Of a DNA stretch of 7,523 bases, positions 5,333 through 6,237 are shown piece after piece (position 1 is the first letter of the stretch; each line of letters starts with the position of its first letter). The notes under the pieces were generated by a model. The model saw nothing but the letters and a program-made list of their open reading frames with translations, had not been told where the DNA came from and ran no database searches. The DNA comes from a virus (lineage: Duplodnaviria; Heunggongvirae; Uroviricota; Caudoviricetes), in the IMG/VR virus record IMGVR_UViG_2609460344_000014, positions 1-7,523 of that record, one strand, 5' to 3'. Position numbers and translations under genes: made by a program.

Positions 5333-6237
5333 CAGAGACCGCAGCCCGACAGGGAGACTCCTCTGCGCGAGTGTGCGGGGATATTTTCCCTGACACCGGA
5401 CGGAAAGCTGACCGCTAAAAATGCGGATATCAGTGGCAGTGTGAATGCGAACGCCGGGACGCTCAACAACGTCACGGTAAATGAAAACTGTACGATTAAG
5501 GGCATACCGGCCCGAAAGGTGAGCAGGGCGACCCGGGAGGTCCACAGGGACCGAAGGGCGACAAGGGGGATACAGGAGCTGCAGGCCCGGCGGGGCCACA
5601 GGGACCGAAAGGGGATACAGGAGCCGCAGGCCCGGCGGGGCCACAGGGACCGAAAGGGGATACAGGAGCCGCAGGCCCGGCGGGGCCACAGGGACCGAAA
5701 GGAAATACAGGAGCCGCAGGTCCGGCAGGGCCACAGGGACCAAAAGGGGATACAGGAGCCACAGGTCCGGCAGGACCGCAGGGACCGAAAGGGGATACGG
5801 GAGCCGCAGGCCCGGCAGGGCCACAGGGACCGAAAGGGGATACAGGAGCCACAGGTCCGGCAGGGCCACAGGGACCGAAAGGGGATACAGGATCCACAGG
5901 TCCGGCAGGTCCTCAGGGACCGAAAGGGGATACGGGAGCCGCAGGTCCGGCAGGACCACGGGGACCATCCGGAAGTCCTGACAGCGGGCTGTTTGGTGTC
6001 GGTTCTTTTGTCCTTGCGGCGTATTATGCGACGAGTTATTCGGGGGATATGGCACCGGGCGCAGCTATTGCCGGCTCATCACTGTCTGCATGTTGCCTTT
6101 CGAATGGTACTCCCCTGGTTGCTTCCTCTCGTGTGGGGGAGACCCGTTTACCGGGCACGTGGCGTGCATGTAGTCCGGTAATATGGACATCTGCTGCAGG
6201 TACAAGACAGGCAGGATTATTTCAGCGCATATCATGA
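5333..6237 (+). pseudogene. 3' remnant of a collagen-like tail-fibre gene: 5'-truncated and frameshifted
   Basis: The reading frame opens with no start codon right after a stop at 5330-5332 and reads ...[38 protein letters not shown] (tail-fibre-like). A -1 frame change is needed around 5500-5512 (stop TAA 5497-5499 in the downstream frame). The downstream frame (codons from 5500) then runs through Gly-X-Y collagen-like repeats and a roughly 90-aa C-terminal domain to TGA 6235-6237. Neither segment has its own start before 6049. Confidence 0.7.
5566..5970 (+). repeat. Tandem array of nine 45-bp units (consensus ggggatacaggagccgcaggcccggcggggccacagggaccgaaa) encoding the collagen-like 15-aa unit [15 protein letters not shown]
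   Basis: Units begin at 5566, 5611, 5656, 5701, 5746, 5791, 5836, 5881 and 5926 with a few substitutions each; a more degenerate unit precedes at about 5521. Period is 45 bp, so the frame is preserved. Confidence 0.9.

Follow-up and report, generated by a model that had tools for sequence, protein, structure and literature searches.

A collagen-like repeat array of variable unit number in a truncated side-tail-fibre gene of an Escherichia coli prophage

Introduction

Does an array of 45-bp tandem repeats encoding Gly-X-Y triplets, found in the late region of a lambdoid prophage, belong to a working tail fibre, and does its length differ between strains? The window, i.e., the whole stretch of 7,523 bp analysed here, is the entire contig JNRD01000117.1 of the draft assembly GCA_000704505.1. 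It carries genes for a NanS-p-type esterase, a DUF826 protein, a holin, a lysozyme and Rz, then the array, and after it a DUF4376 gene and chromosomal flank. An earlier note, made from the sequence alone, had drawn attention to the array and to the open reading frames (ORFs) that cross it.

Collagen stalks of variable length, their Gly-Gly interruption and the frequent defective copies in E. coli prophage fibres have been known since 2012. Trimers with a collagen triple helix were demonstrated for EPclA and EPclB by CD, AUC and EM, and variable Col lengths, a GxPGGPxG interruption and copies that have lost the frame were described in the EPcl family (Ghosh et al. 2012, PLoS One 7:e37872).

For the locus studied here, the evidence makes one explanation probable. 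Under it, the array forms the distal portion of the sequence that codes for the collagen stalk in an EPcl-type fibre gene. This sequence varies by whole units between strains, and in the window the gene would have been inactivated by two deletions. The features on which the argument rests are collected in Table 1.

Table 1 Features of the window around the repeat array (positions counted from the first base of the window; a dot marks features without strand)
Feature	Position	Strand	Evidence and remarks
Rz-type lysis (spanin) gene	4739..5290	+	PF03245 Phage_lysis, E=6e-50; 4823-5290 in the source record; last intact late gene before the relic
Spurious 339-aa antisense ORF	5036..6055	-	Crosses the array into the antisense of Rz; absent from the gene calls of the source record
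Ordinary DNA downstream of Rz	5291..5383	+	Leads on to the terminase genes in intact phages
Deletion junction 1 (favoured reading)	5382..5383	.	2-bp TA common to post-Rz DNA and gene J; base-level alignment
Internal fragment (124 bp) of gene J (tail-tip, host-specificity)	5382..5505	+	Encodes 40 residues; no start codon of its own
Spurious 246-aa ORF	5441..6181	+	Codons 1-21 are J in the J frame; the remainder is a +1 read of the array and the C-terminal domain
TAA stop in the Gly-X-Y frame	5497..5499	+	J-derived; closes the collagen frame just 5' of the fusion point
Deletion junction 2 (favoured reading)	5504..5505	.	2-bp AT common to J and the fibre gene; alignments against L012 (J) and L009 (fibre)
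3' remnant (~60%) of an EPcl-type side-tail-fibre gene, codon ~168 to stop, pseudogene	5504..6237	+	Fibre alignments; Pfam Collagen
GDPGGPQG, single conserved interruption of the Gly-X-Y periodicity	5527..5550	+	Translation; PGGP also in intact alleles
Nine 45-bp units of 15 residues each	5566..5970	+	Types a-b-b-c-d-e-f-g-h; Tandem Repeats Finder, unit table, codon-position analysis, cross-allele unit map
Two identical copies of unit b	5611..5700	+	Unit map; one-unit duplication relative to the commonest allele, abcdefgh
Coding remnant of the 91-residue non-collagen C-terminal domain	5962..6234	+	Not Pfam PfC; 82-99% to the C-termini of full-length PfN+Collagen proteins
DUF4376 gene, intact	6245..6853	+	PF14301, E=9e-17; phrog_1141 'tail fiber protein', E=3e-79; strong RBS, GAGGAGG

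The repeat array and its reading frame

Applied to the whole window, Tandem Repeats Finder reported the array at 5566-5966 with a period of 45, 8.9 copies, 91% matches, no indels and a score of 641; just two other rows, with scores of 31-33, were returned for the 7.5 kb. The reported end lies at 5966 instead of 5970 because unit 9 departs from the repeat at its 3' end, which reads GPRGPS. The longest exact run at a lag of 45 measures 77 bases; in shuffled sequences (n=200), the longest run averaged 6 bases and never exceeded 9. The G+C content reaches 69% in the array vs 52% in the window. Pairwise identity between units averages 91% (range 84-100%), and units 2 and 3 form the only identical pair. 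The nine 45-bp repeats of the earlier note are thus confirmed by the Tandem Repeats Finder run, but its wording "near-perfect" was generous for a mean identity of 91%. At the protein level, few residues are exchanged between units: N replaces D once, and T or S occurs in the A-A pair.

Upstream of the array, the Gly periodicity is broken once. This break, pointed out in the earlier note, is real and corresponds to the conserved G-X-P-G-G-P-X-G interruption of the family. Downstream of it, Gly-X-Y continues without a break for 147 residues. The translation of 5500-6234 scores 84.5 bits against Pfam Collagen PF01391 (cut-off 27.2; E=4e-24).

The codon changes identify the frame. When each of units 1-8 is compared with the consensus, the Gly-X-Y frame shows 15 synonymous and 5 nonsynonymous codon changes; the same count gives 3 and 16 in one of the other two forward frames, 0 and 19 in the other. 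Moreover, 8 of the 11 variable columns fall on third codon positions, and all Gly residues are retained in the Gly-X-Y frame. The Gly-X-Y frame is the frame under selection. The collagen-like motif proposed earlier is therefore borne out by the Pfam match together with the synonymous/nonsynonymous test. Translation of a different frame, combined with an invariant copy number, had been named as an observation that would speak against it, and the selection signature lies in the Gly-X-Y frame.

The fibre gene family and its intact relatives

The gene to which the array belongs is a collagen-like side-tail-fibre gene of the EPcl type, as found in lambdoid prophages of E. coli; the window holds a fragment of it and not a functional member of this type. 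PHROG tail-fibre families match it with E-values down to 1e-94. In intact loci, the gene order is J-lom-fibre-DUF4376, and the fibre protein of 382-442 aa is annotated as 'prophage tail fiber N-terminal domain-containing protein'. Full-length relatives consist of PfN PF08400 (residues 1-127), Collagen PF01391 from residue 129 and a C-terminal domain of 91 residues. The collagen part begins right after PfN in these proteins, and the PCoil region (~116 residues) is absent. No hit to PF06820 (PfC) was obtained at E<=0.1, either on the fragment or on the full-length relatives. Judged from the sequences, the architecture is EPclC/D-like, with no PCoil and a non-PfC C-terminus. The C-terminal domain itself matches phrog_4900 'tail protein' weakly; it gave no Pfam hit and no meaningful relative in a PDB sequence search.

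The closest likeness is to EPclA-D of EHEC prophages. The intact relatives, like EPcl, occupy the side-tail-fibre slot after J and lom and start with PfN PF08400. As in EPcl, there is a (Gly-X-Y)n PF01391 stalk with the G-X-P-G-G-P-X-G interruption, its length varies across copies and strains, and defective copies with loss of frame occur. Unlike in EPclA/B, the C-terminal 91 residues are not PfC PF06820 and the 116-residue PCoil is missing. Unlike the EPcl proteins, the window copy represents only the 3' 60% of the gene and follows a J fragment with which it does not share a reading frame.

Fibres outside this family share some of these traits. Lambda Stf and StfR of K-12 carry non-collagen repeats and use a Tfa-type assembly partner. 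They resemble the intact relatives of the window copy in the slot after J and lom, in the small partner gene that comes next and in the PfN domain, whereas the window lineage has a collagen stalk and a DUF4376 partner. The DUF4376 gene always comes after the fibre gene in related loci. The exact protein encoded in the window was found on 90 E. coli contigs; a PDB sequence search gave no meaningful relative of it.

Fibres of short-tailed Stx phages are alike in another way. ORF67 (ECs1228) of the Stx phage Sp5 was located at the tail ends by immuno-EM, and the lateral fibres of phi24B are trimers of gp61, for which a collagen-like shaft is predicted. In both phages, the lateral fibre is a trimer that combines a collagen-like shaft with a small globular domain at the C-terminus, and the collagen-repeat DNA of the two is 84-90% identical to that of the window over short stretches. 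Outside the repeats, no match between the window and the Stx phage fibres was found. A megablast search of the phage GenBank collection returned only Stx2 podovirus fibres, matched over ~95-190 bases within their collagen repeats, and at megablast sensitivity the C-terminal domain of the window occurs in no deposited phage of that collection.

By homology and by analogy with the published relatives, the intact relatives of the window allele would form a triple helix and serve as fibres. In them, the Gly-X-Y frame would be translated into a protein composed of the PfN domain, the stalk and the small C-terminal domain. Three such chains would then wind into a collagen triple helix which holds the C-terminal domain at a distance from the tail, as in the family members studied so far.

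Damaged copies of this gene pair were also seen elsewhere. E. coli O104:H4 (CP027394; locus L021, 1-1014) carries a decayed fibre gene, recorded as a pseudogene 'missing C-terminus'. In strain ST866 (CP077646; locus L016, 1535-2143), the DUF4376 gene is split into two ORFs.

Variation in unit number

The number of units differs among alleles that are otherwise nearly the same. The commonest allele, abcdefgh, has 8 units and was found at eight loci, including the complete genomes CP061212, CP061239 and CP077646. The window reads abbcdefgh, with 9 units; short-read assemblies can miscount identical units, and the count of unit b in the window is to be taken as two or more. Another 9-unit allele, abcdeefgh (L009), has unit e twice, and L003 contains a c/d hybrid, ab(c/d hybrid)efgh, and thus 7 units. 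The flanks of these four alleles are 99.7% identical or better, and the 8-unit alleles match the window at 99.7% from 5606 onward. Head-to-tail unit number thus differs among near-identical alleles, which makes the array a coding VNTR.

Among more distant alleles in complete genomes, 7-11 units were counted, with coding sequences of 397-442 aa. Full-length representatives of 90%-identity clusters with the same C-terminal domain have 0-8 units, many of them coming from short-read drafts. The similarity between units is higher within arrays (0.90) than between arrays (0.86; 0/2000 permutations), which indicates some homogenisation within arrays.

The gains and losses concern single units and affect more than one place in the array, which is what slipped-strand mispairing or unequal crossing-over would produce. 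Either process, acting on the 45-bp units, would add or remove 15 residues at a time, and the stalk length would differ by strain as a result. The expectation in the earlier note that fibre length varies between strains was right for the gene family, with gains and losses of whole units on a near-identical background. Its suggestion of a recent expansion holds for the duplicated unit b alone; the other units differ by 1-7 bases and follow the same order in other strains.

Similar length changes occur in bacteria. In Scl of Streptococcus and BclA of Bacillus, the number of in-frame Gly-X-Y repeats varies between strains and alters fibre length. Unlike these bacterial surface proteins, the case described here concerns a 15-residue unit in a phage tail-fibre gene, and the copy in the window is a pseudogene. 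The unit map is a clear small example of the gain and loss of single units, and it could become a marker for fine-scale typing of strains and prophages if validated with long reads.

Two junctions upstream of the array

The sequence between Rz and the array joins three pieces that lie apart in intact prophages. Many E. coli prophages share positions 4900-5383 at 97.9% identity, with a match that ends at 5383. In these phages the sequence would lead to the packaging genes; at locus L013, for instance, the terminase small subunit follows ~450 nt after Rz. At the first junction, the window agrees base for base with the post-Rz reference as far as 5383 and with the J allele starting at 5382. What is missing here comprises every head and tail gene between Rz and J, terminase included, and about the first three-quarters of J. 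The J fragment (5382-5505) is 100% identical to annotated gpJ genes of complete E. coli genomes and 85% identical to J of L001.

Around the second junction, J and the fibre gene resemble each other imperfectly over a short stretch, CGAT(T)AAGGG. Since J codon positions 1-2 meet fibre codon positions 2-3, the reading frame is not kept across the fusion. The 3' end of J, lom and fibre codons 1 to ~167, including the PfN domain, are missing at this point. Consequently, nothing but the 124-bp J fragment precedes the fibre remnant on its 5' side; lom and most of J are gone. The remnant itself is well preserved. From 5493 onward, it is 95.5% identical to L001 and, ungapped, 98.9% identical to L009; between 5626 and 7523, only 2 substitutions separate it from L002. 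Against the commonest intact allele, the 1.9-kb remainder shows two substitutions and one extra repeat unit.

A 1-nt frameshift near 5506-5512 was also considered for the loss of frame and was rejected; the sequence upstream is a fragment of gene J and not the fibre gene's own 5' part.

In the explanation favoured here, a first deletion would have joined the DNA just after Rz to the interior of gene J. A second would have joined J, 124 bp further on, out of frame to fibre codon ~168. Both junctions have 2 bp of microhomology, as in illegitimate recombination. The array, now behind a TAA and lacking a promoter-proximal in-frame start, would be part of a very young pseudogene that has kept its coding signature.

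Deletion or assembly artefact

The main competitor to this explanation, which must be judged unlikely, is that the fusion of Rz, J fragment and fibre gene arose during assembly. The array would then be genuine, and the true genome would hold an intact prophage with a normal fibre gene. The nature of the contig lends it some support. The window makes up one entire contig in a draft assembly, and five contigs of that assembly overlap, identical over ~3034-7523 and provided with three different left and two different right flanks; a mixed population may also account for flanks that vary among the window and its four siblings. The right flanks of the sibling contigs part exactly at the last base of the window. 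The left flanks of the siblings carry different nanS-p alleles, encoding 647 aa, 644 aa and, in a split gene, 408+221 aa. It appears that the assembler listed alternative paths through repeated prophage DNA. Since three left flanks are available, the relic and the 2.7 kb at the left end of the window may lie apart in the genome.

The junctions are, moreover, private to this assembly. None of 5,426 complete E. coli genomes spans either of them. The junction 39-mer gave no hits in GTDB species representatives and JGI metagenomes, and in IMG/VR it occurs only on contigs of the same genome. The joined pieces match live genes at 99.9-100% identity, and the 2 substitutions in 1.9 kb relative to intact alleles fit a very recent deletion as well as a chimeric join.

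The form of the junctions points the other way. Misjoins in an assembly graph arise at shared k-mers of tens of bases, but both junctions share 2 bp only. They lie 124 bp apart and are the same in every contig that crosses the region, which a real double deletion fits better. In the IMG/VR scan, no contig of the same genome with an undeleted fibre site was found, and among the matches listed there was none with an undeleted J site. Truncated or split copies of the gene pair also exist in complete genomes, namely the fibre gene 'missing C-terminus' of L021 and the split DUF4376 gene of L016. We therefore favour a real double deletion, private to the strain, because an overlap of 2 bp is unlike a graph misjoin.

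A further proposal, very unlikely in our estimation, gives the truncated locus a role. The relic, the DUF4376 gene, the att site and the integrase would together form an excisable defective prophage which stores a fibre-tip cassette, with the repeats as an adaptor for in-frame recombination. The collagen-repeat DNA is indeed 84-93% identical among many lambdoid fibre genes. If the proposal were true, superinfecting or co-resident phages could exchange stalk length and the module of C-terminal domain and DUF4376.

What the truncation leaves of the gene

On the more probable reading as a double-deletion relic, the remnant combines all the marks of a pseudogene: its 5' part is gone, it lacks an in-frame start, its frame is disrupted and intact homologues exist elsewhere. 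That the window nevertheless holds an intact, expressed fibre gene whose array is translated into a triple-helix stalk is hardly credible: the Gly-X-Y frame contains no stop over 245 codons (5500-6234) and is recognised by Pfam Collagen, and the DUF4376 gene that follows is intact and has a strong RBS, but the frame is closed by the TAA at 5497-5499, the first in-frame ATG, GTG or TTG comes at 6049, 3' of the array, the PfN domain and the first ~167 codons are absent although every full-length relative has them, and what lies upstream derives from J, is read in another frame and likewise has no start. Production of a collagen-like fibre from the window, as the earlier note implied, is not supported by these observations.

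Off-frame ORFs across the array

Five of the six frames lack a stop across the entire array. Long off-frame ORFs arise because Gly-X-Y DNA is G+C-rich and without stop codons. The earlier note had warned of two such spurious ORFs that might be annotated as genes. Both exist, and the warning came true for the 246-aa one, which is a called gene, without a Pfam hit, in the source record and on the 4 sibling contigs (5 contigs). Compared with PHROGs, this ORF (5444-6178) matches phrog_19387 'unknown function' with E=4e-83 and phrog_10175 more weakly. Both families are probably made up of spurious ORFs, read out of frame from collagen-like fibre genes; the match to phrog_19387 means that off-frame products of the fibre gene have already entered a reference family library. 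The 339-aa antisense ORF was not found as a called gene in any annotation examined. At intact loci, the off-frame ORFs are absent from PGAP and other gene calls.

Exact look-up of the 246-aa and 339-aa ORFs, with V or M as first residue, gave no match in a collection of 15 billion proteins. Since the 246-aa call is present in a gene-position index, absence from the protein collection is uninformative on annotation.

Almost no weight can be given to the idea that the 246-aa ORF (5441-6181) is a real gene with a J-derived N-terminus followed by a basic repeat protein from the +1 frame: it is called on all 5 contigs and the phrog_19387 match (E=4e-83) shows that ORFs like it have been annotated in the genomes of other phages or prophages, but 3 synonymous vs 16 nonsynonymous unit changes mark a frame without constraint, there is no Pfam domain, the GTG start has no Shine-Dalgarno motif upstream, the ORF is never called at intact loci by PGAP or other gene calls, and the stop-poor G+C-rich Gly-X-Y DNA (5/6 frames open) explains the open frame. 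The case carries a lesson for annotation, namely that a gene caller facing a decapitated Gly-X-Y gene picks the 246-aa off-frame ORF.

Surroundings of the array

Several observations concern the rest of the window. At 178-2121 (+), it encodes a 647-aa homologue of NanS-p-type 9-O-acetyl-sialic-acid esterases (DUF1737+SASA+DUF6645). Such esterase genes are typically found downstream of stx in Stx-type prophages; the window has no toxin gene. A 134-aa ORF without a Pfam hit lies between the holin and lysozyme genes at 3206-3610 (+). The same slot is occupied by a 114-aa DUF1327 gene in the prophages L022-L024, which is annotated as frameshifted in L013. The slot between holin and lysozyme seems to be variable or decaying.

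A YkgJ-family (CxxCxxCC) cysteine-cluster gene is located at ~7000-7329 (-), between the DUF4376 gene and the att point. It looks like prophage cargo and not a chromosomal gene, because every related locus has it on the phage side of the junction. Beyond the end of the window (7495-7523; 4761-4860 in the sibling contigs L029 and L032), L029 runs into the 3' end of a potB-like permease gene of the chromosome. L032, on the other hand, runs into a minus-strand integrase gene, i.e., an attP-type junction, which suggests an excised circle or tandem prophages, though all structural genes have been lost.
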